DNA of 64,000 nucleotides from Candidatus Eiseniibacteriota bacterium (GTDB taxonomy: Bacteria > Eisenbacteria > RBG-16-71-46), in the NCBI GenBank assembly GCA_963717505.1, contig OY970342.1, positions 3,968,001 to 4,032,000 of the forward strand, given 5' to 3'. Below the pieces are notes generated by a model that searched no databases, was not told the DNA's origin, and worked only from the letters and a program-made list of their open reading frames with translations. A program made the position numbers and the translations under genes. Of the stretch, positions 513 through 48,193 are shown piece after piece; positions within the stretch are counted from its first letter, which is position 1; the number at the start of each line of letters is the position of its first letter.

Positions 513-3209
<2,697 letters not shown>

Positions 3210-3435
3210 GAGTTCCTCCGGAATCGTCCGTCCACCGGGAAGGATGGAGTGCGGCTAGCTAGCGGCTCGGTCCCGGTTCCACGAGGGTGGGAAGGCGGGC
3301 GAAGCTAGCACGCCCGCCAAGGCCTCTCAAACGCTGCGTGAGGCCGAACGTTGGTCTTCCAGCCTTCGAGTGTCACTTCAACTGCGGGCGGCAACGGATT
3401 GGCCGAGGACACGGCCGCGCTGGTAGATTGCCTCG

Positions 3436-5013: not shown

Positions 5014-5947
5014 TTCCGCGGGCGGGCTCGACGGCGCGCGCCCAATCGATGGTGCGCCGTAGCCCCTCGGAGAATCCGACAGTCGCCGTCCAGCCGAGCA
5101 CGTCGCGGGCTCGGGTCGCGTCCAGATAGATGCGCTGCACCTCCCCGGCGCGGGCCGGTTCGTGGATCGGCTGCAGCGACGTGCCGAGCGCGGCGTTGAC
5201 CTCGCGCACGATGTCCAGAACCGAAGTGCCGACGCCGGTGCCCAGATTGAGCACTTCGCCATTCGCGCGATCCAGCGACAGCAGGTTGGCCGCCACCACG
5301 TCGCCGACGTAGAGGTAGTCGCGCACCTGATCGCCGGTGCCGTAAATGTGCGGCCGCTCTCCCGCGAGCATCAGGCCGATGAAGATGGCGTTGACTCCGG
5401 CCTCACCGTGAGGATTCTGGCGCGGCCCGTAGACGTTCGGGTAGCGCAACACCGTGTAGTCGAGCCCGTGGAGCAGCTTCCACACGTAGAGGTAGTGCTC
5501 GACGGTGTGCTTGCTGACGCCGTAGGGCGACTCCGGGTTGACCGGATGCTCCTCGGTCGCCGGCAGGAAGCGGCCCTCGCCGTAAAGCGCTCCGCCGGTC
5601 GAGGCGTAGATCAGCTTGCGGACGCCATGGCGCACGCAGGCGTCGAACAGGCCGAGCGAGCCGAGGATGTTGATCCGGGCGTCCGCGGCCGGGTCGACCA
5701 CCGAGTGACGCACGTCGATCTGCGCCGCGTGGTGCGAGACGATGGCCGGCCGAAACTCGGCCAGGCATCGGTCGACCGCGGTCGGCTCCGCCAGGTCGGC
5801 CTGGTAGAAGGTCGCGCGCGAGTGCACGAATTCCCGGCGGCCGCTCGACAAATTGTCGAGCACGGCGACGTCGTGGCCGGCCGCGACGAAGCCGTCCACG
5901 ACGTTCGATCCGATGAACCCGGCGCCACCGGTGACCAGAATGCGCAC
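5003..5947 (-). CDS. NAD-dependent epimerase/dehydratase (UDP-glucose 4-epimerase-like)
   Basis: ILVTGGAGFIGS Rossmann motif, YGVSK catalytic motif, LRYPNVYGPRQ. Confidence 0.9.
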   Translation of the reverse strand: MRILVTGGAGFIGSNVVDGFVAAGHDVAVLDNLSSGRREFVHSRATFYQADLAEPTAVDRCLAEFRPAIVSHHAAQIDVRHSVVDPAADARINILGSLGLFDACVRHGVRKLIYASTGGALYGEGRFLPATEEHPVNPESPYGVSKHTVEHYLYVWKLLHGLDYTVLRYPNVYGPRQNPHGEAGVNAIFIGLMLAGERPHIYGTGDQVRDYLYVGDVVAANLLSLDRANGEVLNLGTGVGTSVLDIVREVNAALGTSLQPIHEPARAGEVQRIYLDATRARDVLGWTATVGFSEGLRRTIDWARAVEPARGTSG

Positions 5948-6033
5948 GTTCCCTCCCTGTCGTCGTCGAACCCGGGCACGTTAGCCGCGACGTCGCGCGC
6001 TGGCAACGTCGGGGGCGGCGCGTCGTTGGCCGC

Positions 6034-7735
6034 TCAGCCGGCCGTAGGTGTGACCGGAACGCCCTCGGCCGGCGGCAACGCGAAGAAGAACGTGCTGCCC
6101 TGGCCCGGCGTGCTCTCGACCCAGATGGTACCGCCGTGCTGCTCGACGATTCCCTTGCAGATGACCAGGCCGAGTCCCGTGCCTCCGGCCTGCCGGGTGA
6201 GCGATGAGTCGATCTGCGAGAACTTGCGGAACAGTTTGCCGAGATCCTGCGCGGCGATGCCCTCGCCGTGGTCGCGGACGGACACGTGCACCGAGGTCTC
6301 CGCAGGCACGACCCGGACCTCGATGCGGCCGTGAGCGGGCGAGAACTTGATGGCGTTCGAGAGCAGGTTGGTCAGCACCTGGCCGATGCGGTCGGAGTCG
6401 ATGACCACGTCGGGCAGCGATGATTCGACGTGCAGGTCCAGCGTCAGCGACTTCTCCTCGAGCAGGGTCGCCATGGACTCGGCCGCCTGCGACAGCACCG
6501 GCTCGAGGCGCTGGCGCTCGAGGTTCAAGCGCAGGGACGCCGACTCGAGCTTGGAGAAGTCGAGAATGTCGGAGATCAGCAGCAGCAGGCGCTCGGTGTT
6601 CGCGTGCGCGATGGTCAGCAGCTTGTGCTGCTGCTCGGTCTGCGGGAAGAAGCGCTCGTCCGCCAGCAGCTCGACCGCGCCCTTGACCGAGGTCAGCGGG
6701 GTGCGGATTTCGTGCGACACCACCGCGACGAACTCGGACTTCAGGCGGTCCAGGCTCTTGGTGTGCTCGTAGAGCTGGGAGTTGCGGACGCTGACCGCGG
6801 TCTGGGCCGCGAACAGCGCGAGGAAGTGCTGGTCGTCGTTGGTGAAGCCGGTCTCGCGGTTGAACACCGCCAGCACGCCGAGCACCCGCCCCTCGGCGAT
6901 CATCGGCACGGCGAGCAGCGAGCGATACCGCAGCCCGGGCAACCCGGCGCTTCGTGGTCGACGCCCGCCTCGGCCGCGATTCGGACGGTTCGGTGGTCGG
7001 TGAGCGCCGGAGCCAGGACGCTGTCCGGCATCACCACGGGCAGCGTCGTGCGGTCGGGCTCGAGCCCGCCGACGCCGTGCCACGCGGCCGCGCGGGACTC
7101 CCCCGACTCATCGTGCGCCAGGTAGACGACGGCCGCCTGCGCGCCGCTCAGCTCGGCGCTGCGCGCGCAGATCATCGACAGGCGCGGCGCCAGCTCGAGG
7201 TTGTAGCCGATCTCCCGACCCAGGTCGTACAGCGCTGCAGCTGCGTGGTCGCCCGACGGACGCGCTCCTTGAGCTCGTGCTCGTGCCGCTCGAGGATCTC
7301 GTTCTTCTCGCGCAGCTCCTCAACCAGCCGCCGGTTCATCTCCTCGAGCCGCCGGTTGGCGATGCCGCGTTCGACGATCTGCTCCACCTCGTCGAGCTCG
7401 AACGGCTTGGTGATGTAGTCGAAGGCGCCCTGGCGCAGCGCGTCGATGGCGGTCGCGGCCGACGCGTGGCCGGTGACCACGATGACCGCCGACTTCGTGT
7501 CCAGATCCTTGGCCACCCGCATGACCTCGAGGCCCGACATGCCCGGCAGGTTGATGTCGGTGAGGATGATGTCGGGACGCAGTTCGGGCAGGAGGCGCAC
7601 GGCGTCGCGCCCGTTGTAGGCGACGGTGACGCGGTGACCGAGCCCGGCCAGCAGCTCCTCGAGGACCGCCGCGACTTCGACCTCGTCGTCGACCACCAGG
7701 ATGCGGGCCGACCCTGTCTCGGAAGCCTGGGCCAT
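6034..7735 (-). CDS. Hybrid receiver-GAF-histidine kinase (frameshifted)
   Basis: N-terminal receiver (ILVVDDE, DINLPG, DYITKP), GAF (LLAVPMIAEGRVLGVL), HisKA (VSHEIRTPLTS), HATPase (NLLSNAIKF, DHGEGI, GGTGLGL). Start at MAQASETG. Confidence 0.85.
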
Positions 7736-7746
7736 CGCGCGTACCG

Positions 7747-8583
7747 TCAGTGGAGCGCCGAGGGCGCGGCCGCGACCACGCGCCGGCGGCCGCCCTTCTT
7801 CGCGAGCCCGACCGCGCGTTCCGCGGCGCTCAACAGGTCGAGCGGCTCGGTGCCGTCGCCAGGGCTCGCGGCCACCCCCGCGCAGGCGCTGATCCGGCCC
7901 GCACGAGGGAACCGATGCTTCTCGATGGCGCGCTGCACGCGGTCGGCACAGCGCACCGCCGATTCGCGGTCGGTCTCGGGCAACACGATCGCGAAGTCGT
8001 CGCCCCCGAGTCGCGCGACGATGTCGGTCTCGCGCAGCGCGAGCTTCAGCACCAGCGCGACTTCGGCGAGCACAGTGTCTCCCGCCTTGCGCCCATACCG
8101 TTCGTTGATCGCGGCGAAGTGATCGAGGTCGATCACCAGAACGGACACCGGCAGGCCGTGGCGGCGCGCGCGCGCCAGCTCCTCCTGGAGTCGCGCATGG
8201 AACGCCCCGGCGTCGGGCAGCCCGGTGAGCGAATCGCGTCCGGGCATGGTGCGCAGCCGCAAGAGCTCGAGCCGGGCGCCGAGGGCGGCGCCGAGGGCTC
8301 CCGCGGCGGTGCGAATCAGGGTCAGCTGCGAAGGCTGCCAGGCACGGCCCGGACGCGCGATCAGGTCGAGCGTTCCAACGCGCTCCGTCCCCCGCATCAG
8401 CGGCACGCTCAAGCAGCCGCGCAGATCCCCGGCGGCCGTGCGCCAGGCGCCGCGCGCGCACCAGGGTTCGATCGCACCCGAGGGCCCGATCGCGTGCAGG
8501 GCGACGCCGTCGCAGTCGAATGCGCGAATCAGCGACATCAGCGCCCGCTGCAGCGATCGCGGCTCGGCCGCGGGCGAGAGCAT
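7747..8583 (-). CDS. GAF-like plus GGDEF diguanylate cyclase (GGDDF variant, RxxD I-site)
   Basis: DSLTGLP, DLDHFAAINERYG, RETDIVARLGGDDF. Start chosen at ATG 8583, though the ORF is open to 8808. Confidence 0.8.
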   Translation of the reverse strand: MLSPAAEPRSLQRALMSLIRAFDCDGVALHAIGPSGAIEPWCARGAWRTAAGDLRGCLSVPLMRGTERVGTLDLIARPGRAWQPSQLTLIRTAAGALGAALGARLELLRLRTMPGRDSLTGLPDAGAFHARLQEELARARRHGLPVSVLVIDLDHFAAINERYGRKAGDTVLAEVALVLKLALRETDIVARLGGDDFAIVLPETDRESAVRCADRVQRAIEKHRFPRAGRISACAGVAASPGDGTEPLDLLSAAERAVGLAKKGGRRRVVAAAPSALH

Positions 8584-8635
8584 CGCCTCGCACGCCGACC
8601 ACAGGAACTGGGACGCGCGCCGGCGGTCGACCGCG

Positions 8636-8663
8636 GTATCGGGCGTTCCGGCGTCGCTCCTGC
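8636..8663 (-). promoter_or_regulatory. Possible sigma-28-type promoter for the GGDEF/hybrid kinase genes
   Basis: Minus strand GCAGG-N15-CCCGATAC; degenerate -35. Confidence 0.35.
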
Positions 8664-8716
8664 GCGTCGCGAGCCCGTCGCCGCCGGTGGGCGGTGCTGC
8701 GGCCAACGACGCCCGG

Positions 8717-9001
8717 CTACGCCGCGCGCGACTCGGAACCGTCGGCGTGGAGCCGCGCTTCGACGACGCGAAGACGCGCCATTGCGTTTTCGATCCGTTG
8801 CGTCTCACCCAGCACCACCTCCAAGCGTGTGCGAAACGCAGGGTCGCTCGCCGCCGAATCGGCCAACAGCAAGCGGATCTGCCCCCGCAAGCCTGCCAAT
8901 GCGTTCAAGACTTCGCTGTGGATGCTGATCGCCGAGGTCGCCGCCCAGGCGGAATCGCCGGCATCGGCGCCGGGGACTCCGACCCGCGACTTCCGCTCCA
9001 C
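8717..9001 (-). CDS. Small stand-alone HisKA/DHp-like helical protein
   Basis: 'IHSEVLNALAGLRGQIRLLL...RLEVVLGETQRIE' parallels the HisKA pattern 'AHEIRNPLAGI...VILDEVARL'. GTG start assumed. Confidence 0.45.
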   Translation of the reverse strand: MERKSRVGVPGADAGDSAWAATSAISIHSEVLNALAGLRGQIRLLLADSAASDPAFRTRLEVVLGETQRIENAMARLRVVEARLHADGSESRAA

Positions 9002-9819
9002 GCGCCGTTGCTGTTCAACGCCTTCTGCAGCCGCAGTCGCAGCCGCGCCATCGCCCGGCTGTGCACCTGCGACACGCGCGACTCCGAGATCCCGAGTGCC
9101 CGTCCGATCTCGTTCAGCGTCATGTGCTCGTAGTAGTAGAGCGCGACCACCAGCCGCTCCTGCTCGGGCAGCTGGTCGAGGGTGCGCAACATGACCCGGC
9201 GACCCTGCTCTTCCTCGAGCCGCGCCTCGACGTCGACCGCGTGCGGATCGGCGAGATGGTCGCCGAGGGTCGACGGCTCCTGGTCGTCGCCGGGGCGGCT
9301 CTCGTCGAGCGACACCAGCACCGCGCCGCGGACGTGGTCGAGCAGCCGGTAGAAGTCGGTGCGCGTCATCTTCAGTTCTCGGGCGACTTCCACCTCGGAG
9401 GCTGCGCGTCCCAGCTTCTGATCGAGCTTGCGGGTTACGCCGTCGAGGTTGCGCGCCTTGCGACGCATGGAGCGCGACACCCAGTCGAGCGCGCGCAGCT
9501 GGTCGAGCACGGCGCCCTTGATCCGCCACACCGCGTAGGTCTCGAACTTGACGCCCTTGCCGGTGTCGAACTTCGCGTGGGCGTCGAGCAGTCCGAGCAC
9601 GCCGGCCGAGTAGAGATCCTCGTGATCCACGTTCTTGGGCAGCGTCGCCGCGACGCGCTCGACCACGTGCCGGACCAGCGGCGCGAACCGGCTCAGCAGC
9701 TCGTCCTTGGAATAGGTCACGGGCACCGACGCCGGCGCGCTGCGATTGGCCGGCTTGCGCACGACTCGAATGGGGGCACGGGACCGGGTGGTGGAGCTGA
9801 CGGGGACGGGGCGTGGCAT
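8905..9819 (-). CDS. fliA: FliA/WhiG-family (sigma-28) RNA polymerase sigma factor
   Basis: DLYSAGVLGLLDA..KFD..KGVKFETYAVWRIKGAVLDQLRALDWVSRSMR; region 4 LYYYEHMTLNEIGRALGISESRVSQVH. Confidence 0.92.
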   Translation of the reverse strand: MPRPVPVSSTTRSRAPIRVVRKPANRSAPASVPVTYSKDELLSRFAPLVRHVVERVAATLPKNVDHEDLYSAGVLGLLDAHAKFDTGKGVKFETYAVWRIKGAVLDQLRALDWVSRSMRRKARNLDGVTRKLDQKLGRAASEVEVARELKMTRTDFYRLLDHVRGAVLVSLDESRPGDDQEPSTLGDHLADPHAVDVEARLEEEQGRRVMLRTLDQLPEQERLVVALYYYEHMTLNEIGRALGISESRVSQVHSRAMARLRLRLQKALNSNGAWSGSRGSESPAPMPAIPPGRRPRRSASTAKS

Positions 9820-9831
9820 CGTGCCTCCCTG

Positions 9832-10744
9832 CTAGGCCAGGAGCCGGCGGGATTCCACCGGTTCCTGAATCGAGGGCTCAGGCTCGGGTGTCCCCCACAG
9901 CAACGCCGCCATCGCCGGTAGGCGATCGCGGCCGGAGACCGGGGAAACGCCGTGAGCACGGGCTCCTGGCGGCGCACGGCCCGCGGGACGCACGGGTCGT
10001 ACGGCACGGAGCCCAGGAACGGAACGTCGAGCTGCAGGAAGCGGCGCGCGACGAGTCGGATGCGGTGCGCGGTCTCGTCGGCCTCGTCCGGCGCCGAGGC
10101 CATGCTGACCACCAGGTGCGGCGACCGCTTGAGTCCCTGCTGGTGGAGCAGCTTGATCAACGCGTAGGCGTCCGAGAACGCGGGCATCTCGGGGGTGGTC
10201 ACGACCACCACGTCGTCGGCCGCCAGGCACAACGAGACCACCGTCCGACGACGCCGGACGCGAGGTCGAGGAGCACGAGGTCGGCGTCGCCGGCCAGCGC
10301 GCCCAGGGCCCGCAGCACCACCTCGCGCCGGAAGTCGTCGAGCTCGGCCAGCTCGGGAGCACCCGAAGCCGCGGGCACCAGCGTCACGCCGCGCCCGGCC
10401 GGCAGCACGATCTCCTCGATGCTGCGCTCGCCGTTCAGCACGTGCTGCAGGTCGTAGCGCGGGTGGACGCCGAGCAGCAGGTCCAGGTTGGCTTGCGCGA
10501 AATCGGCGTCGACCAGCAGGACGCGCGCTCCCTGCTGACCGAGCGCCACCGCGAGATTGGCGGCCAGGTGGCTCTTGCCGACGCCGCCCTTGCCGCTCGC
10601 GAACGCGATGGTCGGCACACGTGGGCGCCGCCAGCTGGCCGGATGCAGGGCCGGTTCGCTCTCGGTGGCGCCCTCGGCGCCGAGCACGACCCGCAGGGCG
10701 TCGGATCCGGCGTTCGCAGTGTTGCGGCCGCGGTGGCGCTTCAT
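9832..10744 (-). CDS. flhG: FlhG/FleN-like MinD/ParA ATPase (one frameshift)
   Basis: SGKGGVGKS, LLVDADFAQANLDLLLG, VPAASG, VVTTPEMPAFSDAYALIK, AVRRQEP; lies directly upstream of fliA. Confidence 0.85.
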
Positions 10745-10983
10745 CGGCCCCACCGGGTGTCGCCCTCGTGCTCGGCCATCGTGTGCAGAGCGCCGACGAA
10801 CTCCCAGTACCGACGCTGCTCGCGGCACGACGCGAGCGGCCACTCGAGGCCGATCCGCGCGAGGCGCCGCTCTTCGTGTCGCAGGGTCTCGACCGCCGCC
10901 TGGATCGCGTAGCCGCGCTCGCCGGCGGTGGCGGGAATGACGCGCGACAGCTCGGCGCACGGGGTCAGCGCAGGACGCGTCAC
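10741..10983 (-). CDS. Hypothetical 80-aa protein
   Basis: Start/stop overlaps with both neighbours (GTGA at 10980-10983, ATGA at 10741-10744) indicate translational coupling. Confidence 0.6.
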   Translation of the reverse strand: MTRPALTPCAELSRVIPATAGERGYAIQAAVETLRHEERRLARIGLEWPLASCREQRRYWEFVGALHTMAEHEGDTRWGR

Positions 10984-11261
10984 GACGCCTTCCGCAAACG
11001 CAGCGAGACGCGCGGCGCAACCTGAGCGCGCGGGCGCGCGGCCAACTTCAGCCTGGCGATCAAGGCCTGGTAGGAGCGCTCGAAGCGACGGACCGACATC
11101 CCCATCGCCACCGCCGCCTCGGCCTGGGTCAGGCGCTCGATCAGCACCAACGCCAGCATCGTGCGCTCGTCGGCGGTGTAGTGCTCCAGAGTCTCGGCTA
11201 CCGGACTCGGGCCGGTCGCGGCGCGGCCGCCCTGGATCACACGCAGTCGCGGGCGCTTCAC
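10980..11261 (-). CDS. Sigma-70 region-4-like HTH protein (region 4 only)
   Basis: 'LEHYTADERTMLALVLIERLTQAEAAVAMGMSVRRFERSYQALIARLK'; GTG start overlaps the stop of the upstream receiver gene. Confidence 0.65.
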   Translation of the reverse strand: MKRPRLRVIQGGRAATGPSPVAETLEHYTADERTMLALVLIERLTQAEAAVAMGMSVRRFERSYQALIARLKLAARPRAQVAPRVSLRLRKAS

Positions 11262-11659
11262 GCCGCTCTCCGGGGACGAGAACGCATCTCGTCGGCGCGG
11301 TTCTGGCCGATTGCCCGGTACGCGGACTGGCGCAGCTGCTCGATTCGGAACGGTTTGGTGAAGCACTCGACGATCCCGACCCGCGCCAGCTCGGCCGGCG
11401 TTCCGGGAGTCGGATCGGCGGTGAGCAGAATCACCGGCTGCCGCCGGTCGCCGCGCTGCAGCTTGCGCGCCAGCTCGACGCCGCTCATTCCGGGCAGCCT
11501 GAGGTCGGCGATCACCAGATCGCTGTCGTGGTCCTCGAGCCAGGACCATGCATCCTCGGCGCTGCGGAAGACGTCGATGGTGAACCCGTCGTCGTTGAGC
11601 CCTTCGGAGAGGGCCCATGAAACGGTCGGTTCATCGTCGACGATCAGAATGTGCGGCAT
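11258..11659 (-). CDS. Single-domain response regulator receiver
   Basis: ILIVDDE, LVIADLRLPGMSG, VILLTA, FTKPF. Confidence 0.9.
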   Translation of the reverse strand: MPHILIVDDEPTVSWALSEGLNDDGFTIDVFRSAEDAWSWLEDHDSDLVIADLRLPGMSGVELARKLQRGDRRQPVILLTADPTPGTPAELARVGIVECFTKPFRIEQLRQSAYRAIGQNRADEMRSRPRRAA

Positions 11660-11698
11660 CGGGTCGGGCTCCTGGGGTGGGAGGACGGAGCCCGAGGT

Positions 11699-11714
11699 TG
11701 CAGTCTGCGTGCCA
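11699..11714 (-). promoter_or_regulatory. Sigma-54 (-24/-12) promoter of the receiver-sigma4-orf-flhG-fliA operon
   Basis: Minus strand TGGCACGCAGACTGCA (GG-N10-GC), 40 nt upstream of the ATG at 11659 and downstream of a sigma-54 activator gene. Confidence 0.7.
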
Positions 11715-11985
11715 GACCGTGCGCACGTGCGAAGTCGTGGCCGTATGACCCACGGTCGCCGCCCACGAGTGGCCGCGTAGGTGGCTGGCGGGCCGGGTCA
11801 TAGCTTTGGACGGGCGGAAGTTACGGTCGGCGGTGAGACCTGGTTCGAGGCCCGTGCGATGGGTCCCGCGAGGGGTCTCGGCAATGCACAATCGATCCGG
11901 TCGGGTGCAATCCGCCCGCCCAACCTCGTTGCGTCCGGGTCCGGCGACGAATGATTACTGGTCGCCCGGGATGCGAACTGCGCGG

Positions 11986-13421
11986 CTAGGTTTCGTCGTC
12001 GCCGGACTCGTCCGCCCCCTCGTCCAGCGCGAACTCCTTGAGCTTGGTGCGCAGGGTCTGTCGGGAGATGCCGAGCAGCCCGGCGGCCCGGGTCTTGTTG
12101 CCGCCACAGACCTCGAGCGCGTGCTCGATCGCCATGCTGCTCGATCTCGGCCAGCGGCCGGACCGACCCTCGGGGAATACCTCGCCGCGCGACGCGGATG
12201 GGCCGGGACGCTTCCGGCCGGTGATCTCGGCCGGCAGGTGCTCGAGGCGGATCTCGTCGTCGGCCCTGCCAGCTCGAGCAGCACGACGCGCTCGATCACG
12301 TTCTTGAGCTCGCGCACGTTGCCGGGCCACGCGTATTCAGACAGGGCGGCGAGGGCACCGGGGGCGAGGCGCGCCGGCGGCCGTCCGAGCTCGCCGCAGA
12401 AGCGCGCGATGAAGTGCTCGGACCAGCTCGGCCACGTCTCCGGCTCGCTCGCGCAGCGGCGGCATCTCGATCGGCACCACGTTGAGCCGGAAGTAGAGGT
12501 CCTCGCGGAACCGGCCCTCGTCGACCAGCTTCCGGAGGTCGCGATGGGTGGCCGCCACCACCCGCACGTCGACGCGTGATGTCGACGCTGCCGCCGACGC
12601 GGCGGAACGTCCGCGATTCTCGAGCACGCGCAGCAGCTTGGCCTGGAGCTGCGGCGCCATCTCCCCGATCTCGTCGAGGAACAGCGTGCCGCGGTCGGCC
12701 AGCTCGAACAGCCCCTTGCGGAAGCGCTTGGCGTCGGTGAACGCGCCCTTCTCGTGGCCGTAGAGCTCGCTCTCGAGCAGCTGCTCGGGGATCGCGCTGC
12801 AGTTGAGGTCGATGAACGGTCCGGCCGCGCGCGCACTGCGATCGTGGAGGTAGCGCGCCATGAGCTCCTTGCCGACGCCGGTCTCGCCCTGGATCAGCAC
12901 GGTCGCGGTTTCGCTGCGCGCCGCGCGCTCGAGCCGCTGGAGCACGTCGCTTGAGCGCGGCGCTCTCGCCGATCAGCGTGCCGCCGCCACCGGCGCGCCA
13001 GTGCTCGACCTCGCGCTGGAGCCGCGCGTGCTCGAGGGCGGTGGTGACCACCGCCCCGAGCTGGTCGAGGTCGGGCGGCTTGAGCATGAAGTCGTAGGCG
13101 CCGAGCCGGGTCGCCTCGCACCGCGTGCTCGACGGTGCCGTGCCCGGTGAGCATGATCACCGGCAGCGTCGGGTCCTCCTCGCGCAGCGCGCGCAGGACC
13201 TGCATGCCGTCCTCGTCCCCGAGCTTCAGGTCGAGCAGCACCACGTCGACCGATCGCTCGCGCACCTGCGCCAGCGCCTCGCGCCGCCCGGTCGCCTCGA
13301 GCGGGGTGAACCCGAGGTCGCGCGCCCACTCGCCGATGCTGAATCGCAGCGAGCGCTCGTCGTCAACGACGAGGAGTGTGTGCGCGGCCTCGGTCGCTGC
13401 GGGAATCGCGTCTTTCGCCAT
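11986..13421 (-). CDS. Sigma-54-dependent response regulator (NtrC/AtoC/FleR-type; frameshifted)
   Basis: Receiver (LLVVDDE, LLDLKL), AAA+ [53 protein letters not shown], Fis-type [20 protein letters not shown]. Confidence 0.92.
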
Positions 13422-14580
13422 GACGTTTCTCCACGGGGAAGTTGAGCAGCACGGTGGTGCCGCGACCTTCGCGGCTCGCGATCTCGATCGTGCCGCCGTG
13501 CTCCTGCATGATGGTCTGAGAGATCGCAAGCCCGAGGCCGGTGCCGCGTGCGGGCTTGGTCGAGAAGAACGGGTCGAACAGCTTGGATCGGCAGCGCCGC
13601 GCGGAATCCCGACTCCGGTGTCGATCACGCGCATCTGCTGGTATTCGATCCATCCGGGATCCCCGGCGCGCGCGCCTCGCACGGCGTCCGAAGCCCGCCG
13701 GCCCGGCCCGCGGTTCGGGCGGCGTCGCCGCGCGCGGCGCACCTCGTAGCGCAGGGTTCCCCCCTCGGGCATCGCCTGGATCGCATTGAGCGGTCACGTT
13801 GAGCAGCACCTGGGTCACGAGATCGCGATCGACGTGCACGGCCGGAAGCGCGCGGGGCGCGTCGACCTCGACCGCGATCCCGGCGTCGGCGACGGTCTCG
13901 GCGGTCAGCTCGCGCACCCGCTCGAGGCAGCTGGCCGAGCTCATGCGGGTGCCAGCTCGGGCGTGCGCGGGCGCGCGTACTGGAGCAGGCTGGTCACGAT
14001 GTCGGTCGAGCCGCGCCACCTCGTCGAGGATCACCCGGACGAAGCGCGCGCGTTCGTCGCGCGGCTCGAAGCGTCGCAGCAGCACCTGGGCGCTGGTGCC
14101 GATGCCGGCGAGCGGATTGCGGATCTCGTGCGCGACCCCGGCCGACAGCTGTCCGAGGGTCGCCAGGCGCTCGTGCCGGCGCAGCTCCTGCTGCATGCGG
14201 CGCTGCTGGGTCAGGTCGCGGAGCAGAAGCAACACCCAGGGCGGCCGGCCGATCCTTCGGCTCCGGATCAGGACCGGCGTCCCCGCGCCATCGGGGCGGA
14301 GCAGAACGGTCTCACGCTCGGTGCGCGCGGCGGCCCGCGCCTCCCGCACCGGATCGTCGCCGGGCACGACGGTGCGCACGAAGCTCGACCCGGGCTCGCC
14401 GAGCGCTTGGCGCGGGCGCAGCCCCAGCAGGTGCTGGGCCGCGTCGTTGACGGATCGGACGCGGCCGCGGGGATCGAGGACCAGGACCCCCGCCTCCGAG
14501 GTGCGCATGAGGATGCGGAGCGCCGACTCGAAGGGGAAGCCGGTTCGGGATCGACTCGCCGCAACGCTCGCAGGCGCCAT
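13363..14580 (-). CDS. PAS-domain sensor histidine kinase, cytoplasmic (frameshifted)
   Basis: PAS (GVLVLDPRGRVRSVNDAA), VAHEIRNPLAGI, QVLLN, DTGVGIP, FDPFFSTK, GTGLGL. Confidence 0.88.
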   Translation of the reverse strand: MAPASVAASRSRTGFPFESALRILMRTSEAGVLVLDPRGRVRSVNDAAQHLLGLRPRQALGEPGSSFVRTVVPGDDPVREARAAARTERETVLLRPDGAGTPVLIRSRRIGRPPWVLLLLRDLTQQRRMQQELRRHERLATLGQLSAGVAHEIRNPLAGIGTSAQVLLRRFEPRDERARFVRVILDEVARLDRHRDQPAPVRAPAHARAGTRMSSASCLERVRELTAETVADAGIAVEVDAPRALPAVHVDRDLVTQVLLNVTAQCDPGDARGGNPALRGAPRAATPPEPRAGPAGFGRRARRARRGSRMDRIPADARDRHRSRDSARRCRSKLFDPFFSTKPARGTGLGLAISQTIMQEHGGTIEIASREGRGTTVLLNFPVEKRHGERRDSRSDRGRAHTPRR

Positions 14581-14679
14581 CAGGCCTCCTCGGGAAGTGG
14601 CGAAGTATCGCAGAGCCCGGCGGGAAAACGAAAGACGCCCGTCGCTCGACGCGACGCGCGCCTGGATGCTACGAGGACT

Positions 14680-14850
14680 TCAGTTGTGCTTGAGTTCTTC
14701 GATCACCGCCGCGACCAGCAAATCGCGAACCTCTTCCCGATCGTAGTGCCTTTCGGCGATACGGGTTTGGGCGACAGCCACCTTGGACCACCGAATCGCG
14801 GCCTCGACCGCTTCAGGTCGACTCGCCACTCTTCGGACGCGGGTCTTCAC
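14680..14850 (-). CDS. FlgM-like anti-sigma-28 small protein
   Basis: '[35 protein letters not shown]' resembles the FlgM C-terminal 'R..KV......I..G.Y' helix pair; follows csrA behind a sigma-28 promoter. Start uncertain (GTG 14850 or 14829). Confidence 0.5.
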
Positions 14851-15037
14851 TCGGCGGTCCCTGCTGGCGACGGTTTTCTTCTTGGATCCGCGCATAGATC
14901 TCTTCGCGATGGACCTTGACCTCAGGCGGCGCTTCGATGCCAAGCTTTACCTGGCCCGAACGGACTTCGAGGACGGTGATCTTCACAGAATCACCAATCC
15001 TGATGTTCTCGCCTAACTTCCGTGTTAGGACCAGCAT
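14813..15037 (-). CDS. csrA: Carbon storage regulator CsrA
   Basis: [48 protein letters not shown]. Confidence 0.96.
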
Positions 15038-15088
15038 CGTCGCCCATCCTCCGCTCGGCACCCGGACATTGAATCCGGGACACGAGTC

Positions 15089-15115
15089 GTATCGGCCCTG
15101 GTTTCAAACGGCTTA
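15089..15115 (-). promoter_or_regulatory. Sigma-28 promoter of csrA and the flgM-like gene
   Basis: Minus strand TAAG-N15-GCCGATAC versus consensus TAAA-N15-GCCGATAA. Confidence 0.75.
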
Positions 15116-15154
15116 AGTGGACAATACCCGGAACTTAGACGGCCTTCAAAGACC

Positions 15155-15182
15155 TTGACTCCAGGGGGTCGTCGGCTAGCCT
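15155..15182 (+). promoter_or_regulatory. Sigma-70-type promoter of the PP2C gene
   Basis: TTGACT-N16-TAGCCT, about 30 nt upstream of ATG 15214. Confidence 0.45.
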
Positions 15183-15213
15183 GCGCCGGGGGACCAACCC
15201 GGACCGGGGGGCC

Positions 15214-17682
15214 ATGTACCGCACCACCTCACTGCTTTCCTGGCTGTTGCTGCCCCTGGCCGCTTTTCTGGTCGCGAGCGCCCTGGGGCTGTCCCAGCAC
15301 CCCTATGTCGGGGCCGTACTGCGCGGGCCGGCCGTGGTCGCCGTCGACCCGGGCAGCCCGGCCGACCGTGCGGGGATCCGGGCGGGCGACCGCGTCCGGG
15401 CGTCGGCTTCGCCCCAGGCGGGAACGGCGGCCCGCCCCCTGGCGGACGCCACGATCGGACGACCGCTGACGCTCGAGATCGATCGTCAGGGCGAGTCGCG
15501 GACGGCGTGGCTGGTGCCCGATCGGCTGCCGGACGGCGATCGACGTCTGATCGGCGCGTTGCTGCTGGTGGCGTCGGGGTTCGTCTTGCTCGGCGGCTGG
15601 GTGTGGAGTGAACGTCGCGACCCTCTGACGCGCGCCTTCTTCCTCCTGTGTCTGGGGTTCGCGTTCCTGCTGGCGCCCCTGCCCCACGCGACCGGGCGCG
15701 CCGCGCACCTCATTCACGAAGCGGTGCTGACCGGCGTCACCGTCTTCCTGCCCGCCTGGTTCGTTCATTTCTTCGCACTGTTCCCCGACCGCAGTGCCCG
15801 CGGTGGGCGACGCGCGCTGGTCCAGGGCAGCTACCTGATCGCCACGGCACTGCTCGTGATCTCGCTCGCCCCGCTGGTCCTGACCTCGACCGGCCACGGC
15901 GCGATCGTGAACCCGATCGATCCCCTGCTCCAGGCGGTGGCCGCGTTGTGGTTCGCCGCCGGAGTCGTGATCGCCATCGCCCTGTTCGCCGCCGCCCTGC
16001 TCCAGGCTGAATCGAACGACGCGCGGCGCCGTCTGCGCGTCGCCTTTGCTGGAACGGTGCTCGGAGCGGCTCCGCTCGCGGCGTTGATCGTCGTCCGCAA
16101 CGTGGCGCCGGAAGTGTCGATTCCGGGGGAGCGTTTCGCCTTGTTGCTCGTGCTGTTCGTGCCGGCGTCGTTCGCGTGGGCGACCGTGATCCACCAGGTG
16201 TTCGACACGCGCGGAGCGCTGCGGATCGGCCTGGTCGCTGCGTTCCTCGGGCTGGTCGGCGCCGCGCTCTACGCGGCCGGTGAGTGGCTGGCGCTCGCCT
16301 GGTGGCCCAATCTGGGGAGCGGCATCGCCGGCGGGGCACTGGCGATGCTGGCGCTCGGAGCGTGCATCGCGGGACCGCTCGCGCCGCGACTCAGGATGTT
16401 CGGAAGCCGCGTCGTCCCCGAGCCCGGAACGCCATCGCTCACGACCTGGCTTGCGCGCGAGCCCGGCCTGCGCGACCTGCCCATGGAGCGGATCCTGCGC
16501 GAAGCCTGCGAGGTGGTCGCACGCTCCCTGCGTCTCGATGGCTGCGCGGTCGTGGTCTACGACGGCTTGCTCCCCTTCGGAACCACCGGGCACGGCACGC
16601 TGTCGGGAAACGGCTGGCCGGTCCCCGATCGATCGGCGTTTCGGGGGCAGGGCGTGCTGGCGCTCGAGGATGCTTCGCTTCCGACCGGCGATCGCGACCG
16701 CTTGGACCTGGCCGGAGTGCAATGGCTCGTGCCGATCGGTGAGAACCCGACTCGGGGCGTCATGGTGATCGGGCGGCGGCTCGCGGGATCGTGGCTCGGG
16801 CGAAGTGAGCAAGCCGAGCTCGAGAGTTTCTCGGCGCATCTCGCGATCGCGCTCGAGAACGAAGCGCTGCGGCGCGAGGCTTCGGCGCGCGGCCACCTGG
16901 ACCGCGAGCTGGCCGAGGCCGGCGCCATCCAGGCGCATCTGCTCCCTCGGCACGCGCCGGTGTTCCCGACGCTCGATTGCGCCGCCGCGGCACTCGCCAG
17001 CGAAACGGTGGGCGGCGACTACTACGATTTCATCCCGGGTCCCGGACGCGACTTCACGCTCGCGGTCGGCGACGCCGCGGGGAAAGGCGTGCCGGCAGCA
17101 CTGGTGTTGGCCGGAGTCCAGGCCCGGTTTCGCAGCCAGGCGGGGCGCGGACTCACGCCCGGGCGGCTGCTCGCCGAGCTCAATCAGGAACTGGTGGGTT
17201 TGGACCAGCCCGAGAAGTTCGTTGGACTGTTGTGCGCGCGTGTCGAAGTCCGCAGCGCGCGCATTTGTTTTGCCAACGCCGGGCTGACCCCGCCGCTGAT
17301 CCGCCGGCGAACGGGAGTGTTCGAGGAGTTCACCGCCGGCGGCATGCTGCTCGGCGTGCGCGCGCCCTCGACCTATCCCGAAACCTGGGTCGAGCTGGAT
17401 GCCGGCGACCTGGTGGTCATCTACTCCGACGGTCTGACCGAGGCCCGGCGCGGCGAGGAGATGTTCGGGGTCGAGGGGATCCAGCGAGTGCTCGAGGAGC
17501 ATCGGGAGCGCCGGGCAGCCGACATCCTCGAGGCCCTGCTCTCCGAGGTCCGGGCCTGGACCGATCAGCCCCTGGACGACGTGACCGTCGTGGTTCTGCG
17601 TCAGCTGACCCGGGCAGGCCGCCCCGGGGGTCCGCAAAACGCACTCAAGCGGACTCCGGTCACCGCCGATGCAATGGGGTGA
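15214..17682 (+). CDS. Membrane PDZ-GAF-SpoIIE/RsbU (PP2C) phosphatase
   Basis: PDZ (VDPGSPADRAGIRAGD), multiple TM helices, GAF-like segment, VGGDYYD, VGDAAGKG, YSDGLTEA, DDVTVV. Confidence 0.88.
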   Translation: MYRTTSLLSWLLLPLAAFLVASALGLSQHPYVGAVLRGPAVVAVDPGSPADRAGIRAGDRVRASASPQAGTAARPLADATIGRPLTLEIDRQGESRTAWLVPDRLPDGDRRLIGALLLVASGFVLLGGWVWSERRDPLTRAFFLLCLGFAFLLAPLPHATGRAAHLIHEAVLTGVTVFLPAWFVHFFALFPDRSARGGRRALVQGSYLIATALLVISLAPLVLTSTGHGAIVNPIDPLLQAVAALWFAAGVVIAIALFAAALLQAESNDARRRLRVAFAGTVLGAAPLAALIVVRNVAPEVSIPGERFALLLVLFVPASFAWATVIHQVFDTRGALRIGLVAAFLGLVGAALYAAGEWLALAWWPNLGSGIAGGALAMLALGACIAGPLAPRLRMFGSRVVPEPGTPSLTTWLAREPGLRDLPMERILREACEVVARSLRLDGCAVVVYDGLLPFGTTGHGTLSGNGWPVPDRSAFRGQGVLALEDASLPTGDRDRLDLAGVQWLVPIGENPTRGVMVIGRRLAGSWLGRSEQAELESFSAHLAIALENEALRREASARGHLDRELAEAGAIQAHLLPRHAPVFPTLDCAAAALASETVGGDYYDFIPGPGRDFTLAVGDAAGKGVPAALVLAGVQARFRSQAGRGLTPGRLLAELNQELVGLDQPEKFVGLLCARVEVRSARICFANAGLTPPLIRRRTGVFEEFTAGGMLLGVRAPSTYPETWVELDAGDLVVIYSDGLTEARRGEEMFGVEGIQRVLEEHRERRAADILEALLSEVRAWTDQPLDDVTVVVLRQLTRAGRPGGPQNALKRTPVTADAMG
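17645..17672 (+). promoter_or_regulatory. Sigma-28-type promoter at the 3' end of the PP2C gene
   Basis: TCAAG-N15-GCCGATGC. Confidence 0.6.
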
Positions 17683-17785
17683 GGCGACAGAGCGCCGCCT
17701 CCCCCGCCCGCGCTGCCAACCCACGGGCGGCCGCAGCTTACGGTTGACCGCGCTGTGCGCGACCTCGATGTCAGGAGGTCCGACC

Positions 17786-17842
17786 GTGGAGTTCGCTCTT
17801 ACGGTGCTCTTCCTCGACCTGCTGTGGTGGATTCGCCGCTAG
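17786..17842 (+). CDS. 18-aa hydrophobic small ORF MEFALTVLFLDLLWWIRR
   Basis: AGGAGGT Shine-Dalgarno at 17773-17779, GTG start, TAG stop; followed by several hairpins (17851-17890, 17891-17912). Confidence 0.5.
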   Translation: MEFALTVLFLDLLWWIRR

Positions 17843-17997
17843 TCAGCGGACTCCCCCGGCACCTCGCGTAGGTGGGCCGTTCCGGGGGGGCACGACGCTC
17901 CGGAGCGCCGTGTCTCTCTGGGATGGCTCGCGAGGGCGATAGCCTCTGAACACTGGGTCCGCGGCCCGGTCGAGCTCACCGGGTGCGCGGAGCGGTG

Positions 17998-18792: not shown

Positions 18793-18802
18793 GGACTCGC
18801 GA

Positions 18803-19276: not shown

Positions 19277-19369
19277 GGCTTTGAAACGGTACGCCCGAGC
19301 CTTTGGAGTGTCAACCACCACGTCACACAAGCCTGACAGTCGTCGCGGAGAACGACTCCGCAGGCACCA

Positions 19370-20486: not shown

Positions 20487-20636
20487 GGTCCATTCCTCCT
20501 TGAGCGACCCCACCCTGTCGCAGAGGTGGATCCCATGGAGCCCCTTGCCGCCCTTTCTCCAATGGGCCTCGCGGGTGCTTGAACGACCTACTGCGATGCC
20601 TAAGCAAGGAGCCGCCGTCCTCGCACCGGATGGGGT

Positions 20637-20685
20637 CGCGATTCCCGGTCCGCGGCGATGACGCCGCGACTAGACCGGAATCGCG
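20637..20685. other. Long inverted repeat/hairpin in the mglA leader
   Basis: CGCGATTC(C)CGGTC-CGCGGCG-ATGA-CGCCGCG-acta-GACCGGAATCGCG. Confidence 0.6.
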
Positions 20686-20725
20686 CCACTCCGTTGACTG
20701 TGAGATCCCGCGGACTTCGAACCCG

Positions 20726-20753
20726 GTATCGGCCGGCGATCCGAGGGGCTTGA
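20726..20753 (-). promoter_or_regulatory. Sigma-28 promoter upstream of mglA
   Basis: Minus strand TCAAG-N15-GCCGATAC; -10 box identical to that of the csrA promoter. Confidence 0.7.
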
Positions 20754-48190: not shown

Positions 48191-48193
48191 GCG

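Follow-up and report, generated by a model that had tools for sequence, protein, structure and literature searches.

A flagellar-type regulatory island of Candidatus Eisenbacteria, probably retained and rewired towards polarity or surface motility

Results

A conserved block of flagellar-type regulators

We analyzed a 64-kb stretch of DNA (the window) from a member of Candidatus Eisenbacteria, an uncultured phylum. From position 15116 down to 6034, about 9 kb of the minus strand carries regulators that are all co-oriented. Using Pfam, TIGRFAM and the sequence itself, we found every item that the original prediction had listed between 6034 and 15115, all in one orientation. In minus-strand order, the features are as follows:

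14813 to 15037, minus: csrA, 74 aa from the ATG at 15037 (Pfam CsrA, E 6e-26)
14680 to 14874, minus: FlgM-like small protein, a putative anti-sigma-28 factor (29-sequence alignment; sub-threshold Pfam FlgM)
13363 to 14580, minus: PAS-HisKA-HATPase sensor kinase (Pfam; indels disturb the middle in the window)
11986 to 13424, minus: NtrC-type sigma-54 activator, REC-AAA+-lid-HTH_8 (Pfam pieces in at least four frames; frame map against L002)
11699 to 11714, minus: predicted sigma-54 promoter TGGCAC-N5-CTGCA, TGGCACGCAGACTGCA, about 40 nt upstream of the receiver gene
11258 to 11659, minus: single-domain receiver, CheY-like (Pfam Response_reg, E 5.8e-25)
10980 to 11240, minus: stand-alone sigma-70 region-4-like HTH protein of about 85 aa, C-terminus ..LRKAS (sub-threshold Sigma70_r4_2)
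10741 to 10983, minus: 80-aa ORF, a conserved helical hairpin (53-sequence alignment)
9837 to 10700, minus: FleN/FlhG-type MinD-family ATPase (Pfam; one frame break near 10245)
8905 to 9819, minus: FliA/WhiG-family sigma-28 factor, intact (TIGR02479; the conserved part stops near 9009)
8717 to 9019, minus: DHp-only small ORF, in another frame and overlapping the unconserved FliA tail
7747 to 8682, minus: GAF-GGDEF protein with a GGDDF active site and the I-site RETD (Pfam GGDEF, E 1e-37)
6034 to 7720, minus: hybrid kinase, REC-GAF-HisKA-HATPase (Pfam; two frame breaks in the window)

We found 104 relatives and retained 80 loci, nearly all titled Ca. Eisenbacteria, at 61 to 90% identity. Synteny across the lineage, a check proposed with the original prediction, is close to complete: seven core markers are colinear in 36 of the 37 Ca. 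Eisenbacteria loci that span the block. The island is spread over deep Eisenbacteria clades, and in L072 and L074 (62 to 67% FliA identity) the flanks match those of other island loci.

Frame breaks interrupt the sensor kinase, the activator (at least four breaks against orthologues in the frame map), the FlhG-type ATPase (one) and the hybrid kinase (two) in the window. Taken alone, these breaks would favor reading the island as a set of decaying pseudogenes, left over once flagella were lost. Essential genes of the window are broken at a similar rate, with valS in at least four pieces, recG in three and ftsZ in four; ftsA, mraY, the mur ligases and ftsI are likewise frame-broken, and the whole dcw cluster is affected. 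Because these housekeeping genes are broken too, the frame breaks are a sequence-quality artefact of the whole window rather than decay. Orthologues are intact in the 36 colinear loci, and promoters and small ORFs are conserved across relatives. In L017, where the island genes are intact, the sensor kinase (L017:5167-6366) has 399 aa, the unbroken activator 477 aa and the hybrid kinase 569 aa. We consider the pseudogene explanation very improbable.

From csrA to the hybrid kinase

CsrA passes TIGR00202 (91.1 bits; cut-off 70.1), and the Shine-Dalgarno sequence of its gene, GCGGAGGA, has GGA inside. In an excerpt of a 2026 NAR study, few Eisenbacteria CsrAs are predicted as repressors of B. subtilis hag. 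The FlgM-like protein ends in a conserved motif, vRWsrV..AraRIA.GyYDR.eVr..L..AvL.EL, and matches Pfam FlgM only below threshold, in 9 of the 29 aligned orthologues (best E 0.0022); an atlas lead (0.89) connects it to a FlgM-domain cluster. When we predicted its complex with FliA, the score was 0.71, versus 0.02 for the best of three controls, passing a mark that 116 of 157 solved complexes reach, as do 2 of 215 mismatched pairs. At least 52% of contacts recur between runs, the partner has a pLDDT of 59 or more, and the predicted interface falls on FliA residues 173-231 of a 271-aa piece, which correspond to region 4. This pass may reflect mere likeness to solved complexes, because sigma-28/FlgM structures already exist (1rp3/1sc5). 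The sigma-54 contact loop of the activator reads GAFTDA (53 of 56 loci), unlike the canonical GAFTGA of sigma-54 activators.

All 66 loci examined carry a TGGCAY-N5-NTGC motif 50 to 75 nt ahead of the receiver gene, which supports the proposed link from kinase and activator through sigma-54 to fliA. Sigma70_r4_2 matches to the region-4-like protein are all sub-threshold (E 0.003 in the window, 3e-5 in L017, 3.8e-5 in L013 and 0.0025 in L069). The 80-aa ORF is modeled as two helices (AlphaFold2 pLDDT 88); it had no Pfam match, and a fold search of the PDB gave no matches at E ≤ 0.001. The ATPase has the Walker A motif SGKGGVGKS, and its L017 orthologue scores higher against FleN (5j1j, 196.6 bits) and FlhG (4rz2, 139.8 bits) than against archaeal (114.5 bits) or E. 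coli (67.1 bits) MinD.

FliA passes TIGR02479 (242.8 bits versus 189.6) and NF005413 (229.1 versus 201) and falls below the cut-off of the WhiG model (250.7 versus 343). Its best PDB matches are 6pfv/6pfj at 196 bits, with FliA entries at 128 to 177. Third-position GC content switches frame near 9000, where the FliA tail and the DHp-only ORF overlap. This ORF has the H-box IHSEVLNAL (consensus HHEINNAL) and homologues in 61 of 80 loci by tblastn; the L072 orthologue matches HisKA at E 4.5e-5. As for the GAF-GGDEF protein, a canonical GGDEF motif occurs in 9 of 68 loci, while the I-site RxxD is invariant (68 of 68). Because the active site is degenerate and the I-site is kept, the protein is more likely, judging from its motifs, to be a c-di-GMP receptor than an output, and the "c-di-GMP output" suggested originally is doubtful.

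Promoters, mglA and a structured leader beside the island

Several further features lie at or beside the csrA end of the block:

15089 to 15116, minus: sigma-28-type promoter TTAAG-N15-GCCGATAC before csrA, an exact match to the pattern
15214 to 17682, plus: PDZ-TM-GAF-PP2C (SpoIIE-type) phosphatase, divergent from csrA (Pfam SpoIIE, E 8e-42)
17645 to 17672, plus: sigma-28-type promoter before the structured leader, exact match
17645 to 17842, plus: promoter, conserved structured leader and 18-aa ORF (alignment of 29 cores)
17681 to 17701, plus: first hairpin of the leader, carrying the loop motif (alignment and predicted pairing)
Between the first hairpin and 17741, plus: second hairpin, with the invariant loop GCCAACCCA
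17741 to 17749, plus: invariant CGGTTGACC (alignment)
17786 to 17842, plus: 18-aa ORF, VEFALTVLFLDLLWWIRR, with a conserved peptide
19370 to 20513, minus: mglA, Ras-like polarity GTPase (translations; frame breaks in the window)
20726 to 20753, minus: sigma-28-type promoter TCAAG-N15-GCCGATAC before mglA, exact match

MglA acts as a polarity GTPase in gliding and type IV pilus motility. In L023, the orthologue has 394 aa and matches MglA of Thermus (3t12, E 4.8e-73) and M. xanthus (6h17, E 3.9e-69), and the protein has a Pro/Ala-rich C-terminal extension of about 200 aa. The gene adjoins the island in some genomes only. The SpoIIE-type phosphatase holds its syntenic position beside csrA in 30 of 37 full-length loci.

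Both promoter classes are motif predictions. The sigma-28-type pattern, TYAAG-N15-GCCGATAC, has three exact matches in the window against 0.01 expected, and three matches were reached in 0 of 100 shuffled windows, a test that is circular in that the pattern was built from the same three sites. Independent support comes from conservation in other genomes. Before csrA, the relaxed motif is present in 46 and the strict motif in 34 of 47 testable loci; before mglA, the motif lies 190 to 280 nt upstream in the window and in 6 of 7 mglA-holding loci. The predicted -35 element, TYAAG, differs from the canonical sigma-28 TAAA, and a scan of the window for TAAA-N14-17-(G)CCGATA gave no matches.

The structured leader and its 18-aa ORF were not among the items of the original prediction. 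We saw the leader core 29 times (28 loci and the window), with TCAAG at a fixed distance in all 29 and a -10 element NCCGATM in 20. It had no match in Rfam, and compensatory changes are seen at 6 of its 24 predicted pairs. The tiny peptide appears hydrophobic and membrane-type from its sequence; all 29 copies close with ..DLLWWIRR or a near variant, and it is kept despite synonymous changes. Because GGA occurs in a hairpin loop and in the Shine-Dalgarno sequence, this mRNA looks like a candidate CsrA target that would replace flagellin mRNA, although the loop motif ends in GA in only 19 of 29 leaders and the window loop is CAGAGC, not CAGGAU.

Flagellar genes in the window and the phylum

We searched 184 stop-to-stop ORFs covering the window with Pfam and found no flagellar structural, flhF, fliW or che families, in agreement with the earlier claim of no flagellar genes in the 64 kb. 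The sole related match was to the FlgO domain, weak (E 6.7e-5) and lying within a Ser/Thr kinase (24828-27707). Scanned flanks of L002, L004, L011, L017, L072, L074 and L076 also had no flagellar Pfam families.

The KO table of PMC13271369 consists of automatic calls on MAGs, for which an excerpt of the paper gives completeness above 50%. In it, fliA is present in 19 of 20 Eisenbacteria MAGs and structural KOs (flhA, flhB, fliF, fliG, fliM, fliP, fliQ, fliR, fliI, flgE, flgG or fliC) in 5; 14 of the 20 have fliA and none of the listed structural KOs, 3 of these 14 holding isolated fliN-like, flgD-like or motB-like KOs. Two fliA copies occur in 3 of the 5 flagellated MAGs and in 0 of the 14 flagella-less ones. 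In Krumholzibacteria, fliA is found in 7 of 13 MAGs, exactly the flhA holders.

The organism of the window may itself be flagellated, like those five, and the island could then be the master control of an ordinary flagellar regulon whose structural genes lie elsewhere in the genome. All parts do come from families of polar flagellar hierarchies, and excerpts of PMC13271369 infer a flagellated, chemotactic common ancestor. Genes of the che families and MCPs are present in some members, with an MCP adjoining the island in L017, and part of a preprint, citing Zhong et al. 2022, mentions "nutrient-attracted motility" in an Eisenbacteria MAG. Yet the island occurs in essentially all sampled Eisenbacteria, 14 of the 20 MAGs having fliA and no structural KO, and the second fliA in 3 of the 5 flagellated MAGs suggests a separate flagellar sigma factor. 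The three local sigma-28-type promoters precede csrA, mglA and the micro-ORF rather than flagellar genes, flhF is missing from the window, and the FlhF-activating DQAxxLR motif is absent from the FlhG-like protein in 57 of 57 orthologues. We judge this explanation unlikely.

A circuit that always ran both flagella and a polarity or surface programme, flagella-less lineages having lost one output and flagellated members keeping it, is rather unlikely in our view. The presence of the island in deep clades with shared flanks would fit such a history. In flagellated Actinoplanes, sigma-28 factors drive non-flagellar genes, according to an excerpt of PMC8325347; a Bdellovibrio paper, PMC5430801, reportedly bears on the subject too. 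Against dual use, the paired fliA copies argue for division of labour, and no flank examined holds a flagellar gene or promoter target.

Discussion

We favor, with moderate confidence, a phylum-wide island that descends from a polar-flagellar control layer and is now flagellum-free in most of the phylum. The data show what the genes are, that their order is kept, that both promoter motifs and the leader are conserved, and that flagellar KOs are lacking at the level of the lineage. These results support the original view of a self-contained switch turned to a non-flagellar programme such as polarity or surface motility, as do the sigma-28-type promoters before csrA, mglA and the leader. We infer the biological output, the protein-protein and protein-RNA contacts, the operon limits and the sigma factor that reads each promoter.

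In the proposed circuit, a sigma-28-type promoter would drive unit A (csrA, the FlgM-like gene, the PAS kinase and the NtrC-type activator), and the sigma-54 promoter would drive unit B (the receiver, the region-4-only HTH protein, the helical-hairpin protein, the FleN/FlhG-type ATPase and FliA), which probably runs on through the DHp-only ORF, the GAF-GGDEF gene and the hybrid kinase gene. Together, the units would close a loop: the phosphorylated activator with sigma-54 would lead to FliA, and FliA would yield more kinase and activator, a positive feedback, along with its own brakes, the FlgM-like protein and CsrA. FleN damps FleQ, and by analogy the FleN-like ATPase may damp the activator. 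The degenerate GGDEF protein could sense c-di-GMP through its I-site, and the extra REC and DHp modules may serve as phosphorelay input. Candidate outputs of FliA near the island are mglA, the leader with its 18-aa peptide and, in one relative, a chemoreceptor gene.

A block of such regulators normally switches on flagella. Here the flagellar control cascade appears to have been kept and rewired, with polarity or surface motility as the probable new direction. WhiG is a known co-option of a sigma-28 factor; in Eisenbacteria, a whole flagellar control cascade would likewise have been turned to a non-flagellar use.

Gene content of the regulator island

Because the G+C content of the window is about 70%, raw ORF lists were full of false frames, and we therefore called genes by third-position G+C. 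Searches with Pfam and NCBIfam recovered the run of regulators that the original prediction had listed, which we refer to as the island. Its genes, in order on the minus strand from 15116 to 6034, are:

CsrA
Small ORF without a Pfam match (orf88, FlgM-like)
PAS-HisKA-HATPase kinase
NtrC-type sigma-54 activator (REC, AAA+, lid, HTH_8)
Single receiver
Protein with a weak sigma-70 region-4 match
80-aa ORF
MinD/ParA ATPase
Sigma factor with regions 2, 3 and 4
GAF-GGDEF protein
REC-GAF-HisKA-HATPase (hybrid) kinase

The accompanying claim, that this control cascade stands without flagellar genes, was borne out across the 64 kb: Pfam searches of 184 stop-to-stop ORFs covering the entire window showed none of the flagellar structural families, nor FlhF, FliW or any Che family. 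The sole flagella-related match was a weak FlgO-domain stretch within a Ser/Thr kinase.

Several island genes are broken. Compared with the intact proteins of a related locus (L002), there are at least four frame changes in the activator, one in the ATPase and two in the hybrid kinase, and the middle of the PAS kinase is garbled. Pseudogene decay of the island would produce such damage; the same kind of breakage affects the housekeeping genes valS (at least four pieces), recG (three), ftsZ (four), ftsA, mraY, the mur ligases, ftsW and ftsI. We ruled out decay of the island because essential genes are broken to an equal degree, and the frame breaks are best read as insertion and deletion errors that were left uncorrected in the assembly. 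In three stretches (516-3304, 27655-29941 and 38611-55678), valS, recG and every gene of the dcw cluster (mraZ-mraW-ftsI-murE/F-mraY-murD-ftsW-murG-murC-ftsA-ftsZ) are spread over several frames, at about one break per kb.

Conservation in a lineage mostly lacking flagellar genes

A scan with the FliA protein, using one genome per species, found 104 relatives, from which 80 loci were kept; nearly all are titled Candidatus Eisenbacteria, at 61-90% identity. Using tblastn with fragments of the window, we found a shared order in these relatives: a divergent SpoIIE-type phosphatase, the run from csrA to the hybrid kinase, an epimerase and, farther on, Wzi. Synteny across the lineage had been put forward as a check on the original prediction, and the block is indeed colinear, with seven core markers in the same order in 36 of the 37 loci long enough to hold all of it; the exception, L076, begins within the block and carries an insertion. 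In L017, the kinase (399 aa), activator (477 aa), ATPase (297 aa), FliA (288 aa) and hybrid kinase (569 aa) are intact. The most distant clade (L072 and L074) retains the housekeeping flanks TrpA and ValS, and no flagellar domain was found in its loci.

Many relatives carry an extra 2-4 kb between the hybrid kinase and the epimerase (L002:14205-16037, L017:13975-15786, L011:13796-16343), encoding a protein of about 600 aa without a Pfam family and a glycosyltransferase, both missing from the window. Between mglA, or the trpA neighborhood, and the island there is always a conserved secreted protein of some 170 aa without a Pfam family (window 18803-19330, minus strand). At 35320-36786 (plus strand), an FG-GAP repeat protein carries a C-terminal sorting domain of type IX secretion (Por_Secre_tail, sub-threshold), a hint that the source organism has a T9SS.

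Flagellar content of the lineage was judged from a published KO matrix of 20 Ca. Eisenbacteria MAGs (PMC13271369, supplementary Table S4). In this matrix, fliA is present in 19 of 20 MAGs, while flagellar structural KOs are present in five, three of them near-complete; three of the five have two fliA copies (PMC13271369). Fourteen MAGs have fliA and none of flhA, flhB, fliF, fliG, fliM, fliP, fliQ, fliR, fliI, flgE, flgG and fliC, and three of these fourteen carry single fliN-like, flgD-like or motB-like calls (PMC13271369). Some flagella-less MAGs in the KO table carry cheA, cheB, cheW and cheR. The first column of that table is presumably RBG_16_71_46 (L025). Among Krumholzibacteria, fliA occurs in 7 of 13 MAGs, exactly those bearing flhA (PMC13271369). 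The accessible portion of the paper discusses flagellar loss for a sister lineage, passes without comment over fliA occurring without structural KOs, and shows that the Eisenbacteria of the table include WS_11 (PMC13271369). A search of its supplement gave no occurrence of pilT, pilB, pilQ, gldK, rpoN or csrA.

Predicted promoters of two sigma tiers

Motif prediction and alignment placed promoters of two types at and around the island, in addition to a site ahead of csrA:

11714-11699, predicted sigma-54 promoter TGGCACGCAGACTGCA, about 40 nt ahead of the receiver gene
20726-20753, minus strand, second sigma-28-type site, about 200 nt before mglA
17645-17672, plus strand, third sigma-28-type site, after the phosphatase gene and before the conserved leader

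The first of these is the sigma-54 promoter of the original prediction. It was found as described and its motif is kept throughout the lineage, with TGGCAY-N5-NTGC lying 50-75 nt ahead of the receiver gene in 66/66 loci at variable spacing. We sought an activator binding site upstream of this promoter and found no clean repeat. Between the activator stop and the promoter (11715-11985, minus strand) is a partly conserved block, AACGAGGTTGGGCGGGCG, followed by TGCA ... TGCA, which may be a candidate binding site.

Members of the FliA/WhiG family recognize TAAA-N15-GCCGATAA-type promoters. Scanning the window for the textbook sigma-28 consensus (TAAA-N14-17-GCCGATA and looser forms) gave no sites; a lone GCCGATAT at 37201 (minus strand) was rejected, having no matching -35 element. 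When the DNA preceding csrA was aligned, a conserved TYAAG-N15-GCCGATAC emerged that is spaced like the flagellar consensus; it is found in relaxed form in 46 of 47 testable loci and in strict form in 34 of 47, the remainder being off by one -35 base. Predicted sigma-28-type motifs of this form precede csrA, mglA and the leader, and the strict TAAA consensus has no matches. The three occurrences in the window compare with 0.01 expected, for a pattern itself drawn from those three sites; because of this derivation, independent support comes from conservation in other loci. Six of the seven loci that include mglA carry this motif 190-280 nt before the gene, and the seventh (L050) has GCCGATAA with a different -35 element. 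In L017, the island adjoins a gene for a methyl-accepting chemotaxis protein (L017:2-1516, minus strand), which is preceded by a weaker sigma-28-type motif (motifs at 1670 and 1960, minus strand).

A structured leader and its micro-ORF

There are 29 copies of the leader (28 loci plus the window), lying directly 3' of the SpoIIE-type phosphatase gene (window 17645-17842, plus strand; for example L017:1720-1960, minus strand), with TCAAG always at a fixed distance. Its -10 element is NCCGATM in 20 of 29 copies and a GCCGA variant in the others, the window among them. Hairpin 1 usually has the loop CAGGAU, a motif retained in only 19 of 29 leaders; the loop in the window is CAGAGC. Hairpin 2 is G+C-rich with the invariant loop GCCAACCCA, and downstream of it come the invariant CGGUUGACC / CGGTTGACC, a variable hairpin and the Shine-Dalgarno sequence GGAGG. 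The hairpin 2 loop and the downstream CGGUUGACC/CGGTTGACC could pair (CAACC/GGUUG) as a pseudoknot, for which there is no covariation because the pairing bases are invariant. Across the leader, RNAalifold found compensatory changes in 6 of 24 pairs.

After the Shine-Dalgarno sequence comes an ORF of 16-19 codons (18 aa in the window), whose peptide closes with ..DLLWWIRR or a near variant in 29/29 copies (..LDLLWWIRR in longer form); synonymous differences are seen. An Rfam scan of 5500-21500 by E value gave no match to the leader, with just three chance-level eukaryotic matches. The CsrA-controlled hag leader, in the available portion of the source, has a GGA-type site in a hairpin loop and another in the Shine-Dalgarno sequence (PMC13443453). 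By analogy, the leader described here may resemble the hag leader in combining a GGA-type hairpin-loop site with a Shine-Dalgarno site.

A FliA/WhiG-family sigma factor and a FlgM-like protein

The sigma factor has Pfam regions 2, 3 and 4 and no region 1, and belongs to the FliA/WhiG family (TIGR02479, 242.8 bits against a cut-off of 189.6; NF005413, 229.1 against 201). It falls below the WhiG equivalog NF004935 at 250.7 bits against a cut-off of 343, although this is still its best NCBIfam score. Its best solved relatives are 6pfv/6pfj at 196 bits, with FliA-named entries at 128-177 bits; its best PDB and NCBIfam scores are both to WhiG entries. For the control of late flagellar genes that FliA would exert, Pfam identified no flagellar gene in the window.

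The small protein encoded after csrA, orf88, carries a conserved C-terminal motif in an alignment of 29 sequences. The window copy has no Pfam FlgM (PF04316) match at the gathering score; FlgM is the only recurrent family among the orthologues, matching 9 of 29, all sub-threshold (best E 0.0022). A PDB profile search with the C-terminus did not find FlgM, giving two chance matches (E > 0.8), and the Atlas offered an FlgM-domain cluster (0.89) as a tentative pointer. A 187-aa ORF in L017 had suggested that orf88 might be a C-terminal extension of CsrA; we dropped this possibility, as the ORF lies in a different frame and lacks a CsrA domain.

Complex prediction for the FlgM-like protein and FliA scored 0.71, compared with 0.02 for the best of three controls. 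Of 157 solved complexes, 116 reach this mark, as do 2 of 215 mismatched pairs. At least 52% of contacts agree between runs, the partner has a pLDDT of at least 59, and the predicted interface is on FliA region 4. Because sigma-28/FlgM complexes are already solved, the prediction may reflect likeness rather than binding. FlgM is exported through the flagellar type III apparatus. Export apparatus genes were not found in the window, and Eisenbacteria mostly lack them in the published KO matrix (PMC13271369).

Other proteins of the island

CsrA is a clear equivalog (TIGR00202, 91.1 bits against 70.1; NF002469, 96.2 against 73). The ATPase matches P. aeruginosa FleN (196.6 bits) and Geobacillus FlhG (139.8) much better than MinD (114.5 and 67.1), and on this closeness and its deviant Walker A, SGKGGVGKS, we place it in the FlhG/FleN family. 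A DQAxxLR motif at the FlhG N-terminus reportedly activates FlhF. The motif occurs in 0 of 57 orthologues of the ATPase, and Pfam found no SRP-type FlhF domain in the window; the missing motif fits the absence of FlhF.

The kinase and activator have the domain order of FleSR/FlrBC pairs, PAS-HisKA-HATPase beside REC-AAA+-HTH_8. The sigma-54 contact loop of the activator is GAFTDA, not the usual GAFTGA, in 53 of 56 loci (window about 12700, minus strand), a phylum-wide feature. Its AAA+ piece alone does not reach the flagellar equivalogs FlbD (220.7 bits against 750) or FlgR (211.3 against 750). The region-4-only protein gives repeated sub-threshold Sigma70_r4_2 matches. The 80-aa protein is predicted with confidence as a helical hairpin (pLDDT 88), with no fold-search matches at E ≤ 0.001; its best Atlas match (0.81) is at chance level.

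The DHp-like ORF of the original prediction is real, lying at about 8717-9019 with homologues in 61 of 80 loci. This DHp-only frame, with the H-box IHSEVLNAL, overlaps the unconserved FliA tail; the L072 copy is a weak HisKA match. Short basic-Ala tails recur among these proteins (window 11258-11270, 10980-10995, 8717-8730, and orthologues): the receiver ends in ..LRKAA, the region-4 protein in ..LRRAS/..LRKAS, the DHp-only protein in ..SRAA and some 80-aa copies in ..AAEAA. The tails could be a shared C-terminal degradation signal.

The original prediction made c-di-GMP an output of the cascade, which our results do not favor. In place of the GG[DE]EF site of a cyclase, the GAF-GGDEF protein has GGDDF in the window; GGDEF is canonical in 9 of 68 loci, and the I-site RxxD is retained in 68/68. 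Because the active site is mostly non-canonical and the I-site invariant, the protein is more likely to sense c-di-GMP than to make it.

MglA near the island

The mglA gene (window 19370-20513, minus strand; L023:1617-2801) encodes a true MglA orthologue, matching Thermus MglA over residues 3-192 (3t12, E 4.8e-73) and M. xanthus MglA (6h17, E 3.9e-69), followed by a Pro/Ala-rich extension of about 200 aa with a conserved end. Beside mglA, we found no mglB (Roadblock) gene. Its leader of about 200 nt contains a conserved hairpin (GUGGAGAAAGGGCGGCAAGGGGCUCCAU). Just upstream of the mglA promoter is a conserved gene without a Pfam family (window 20800-21300, minus strand; L023:480-1217), with the motifs ..SQKLVRC..PRFIPLEIFGLWEYLM.. 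and ..EDSPEAAY..VTE(I/V)TAFVYSGRD....

A proposed circuit

From the parts, their order and the conserved motifs, we infer how promoters would be used, where operons would end, how the products would interact, and an output in polarity or surface motility. A first unit, transcribed from a sigma-28-type promoter, would comprise csrA, the FlgM-like gene, the kinase and the activator. A second, from the sigma-54 promoter, would comprise the receiver, region-4 protein, hairpin protein, FleN-like ATPase and FliA, probably extending into the DHp, GGDEF and hybrid kinase genes. The two sigma tiers would thus close into a positive loop, braked by the FlgM-like protein, CsrA and perhaps the FleN-like ATPase, with c-di-GMP and a multi-step phosphorelay as inputs. 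Putative FliA outputs adjoining the island would be mglA, the leader with its micro-ORF and, in L017, possibly the chemoreceptor behind its weak motif.

Taken jointly, these elements suggest a tentative and rather doubtful reading, in which the whole flagellar checkpoint circuit (sigma-54 tier, FleN, sigma-28, FlgM and CsrA) would have outlived the flagellum in Ca. Eisenbacteria and would now time an MglA-based polarity or surface-motility program. As a sigma-28-made target or sponge for CsrA, the mRNA of an 18-aa membrane peptide would replace flagellin mRNA, and the unexportable FlgM would be neutralized in the cell, candidates being the co-expressed region-4 protein as a decoy, or c-di-GMP acting through the degenerate GGDEF protein.

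FleN/FlhG, FlgM and CsrA each have a presumed role in sensing or controlling how flagella are assembled. Actinomycetota provide a known case of sigma-28 co-option, WhiG; we know of no complete cascade that has kept all three of these regulators in the absence of a flagellum. If this reading is true, how would a FlgM-type anti-sigma factor be released without a secretion apparatus, what would a FleN/FlhG ATPase count or place without a flagellum and FlhF, and what would CsrA gate without flagellin? It would also tie sigma-28 to MglA, joining two separately studied motility-control systems, and would give a first regulatory handle on an uncultured, poorly characterized phylum.

Comparison with known systems

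No paper among the literature matches listed describes the island. It resembles the four-tier hierarchy of Pseudomonas and Vibrio (FleQ/FlrA, FleSR/FlrBC, FleN/FlhG, FliA, FlgM) in pairing a PAS kinase with an NtrC-type sigma-54 activator, in the sigma-54 promoter before an flhG(fleN)-fliA pair, in an ATPase nearest P. aeruginosa FleN and in a FlgM-like putative partner of FliA. In P. putida, flhA-flhF-fleN-fliA is said to form a sigma-54-dependent operon. Unlike these systems, the island has no flhA, flhF or nearby structural genes, lacks DQAxxLR (57/57), has the loop GAFTDA, contains inserted region-4-only, helical hairpin, DHp-only and degenerate GGDEF proteins, and belongs to a lineage mostly without flagellar genes.

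With csrA behind a predicted sigma-28-type promoter, the island also recalls the sigma-D/sigma-28-CsrA-FliW-flagellin checkpoint of Bacillus subtilis and Campylobacter. It differs in having no fliW and no flagellin, in an ORF of 18 hydrophobic residues, in the CAGAGC loop of the window and in a CsrA target that is putative. The MglA match over 190 residues (E 4.8e-73) is like the MglA/MglB module of Myxococcus and Thermus, unlike which it has the extension of about 200 aa and no adjoining mglB. To our knowledge, no sigma-28-type promoter upstream of MglA is known, and no report linking FliA to MglA was among the literature matches listed. Chlamydial sigma-28 is a FliA-family factor in a bacterium without flagella; we know of no FlhG/FleN, FlgM, CsrA or sigma-54 tier in one island in Chlamydia.

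In its proposed evolution, the island resembles WhiG, whose anti-sigma factor is RsiG. As described in the available portions of two sources, WhiG was co-opted in Actinomycetota for sporulation (Streptomyces) and type IV pili (Rubrobacter), keeps flagellar-type promoter specificity, is linked to c-di-GMP and falls into a flagellar and a non-flagellar clade (PMC8325347; bioRxiv 10.64898/2026.01.14.699351). By analogy with WhiG/RsiG, the island may represent a sigma-28-family factor turned to a non-flagellar program with a c-di-GMP link. It differs from WhiG/RsiG in its phylum, in an anti-sigma factor that is FlgM-like, in keeping the sigma-54 tier, FleN/FlhG and CsrA, and in a sigma factor below the WhiG cut-off; no RsiG-type protein was recognized. 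Against the systems compared here, the island stands out in its phylum, in holding on to the entire cascade with FleN/FlhG, FlgM and CsrA, and in its putative targets, MglA and the micro-ORF leader.
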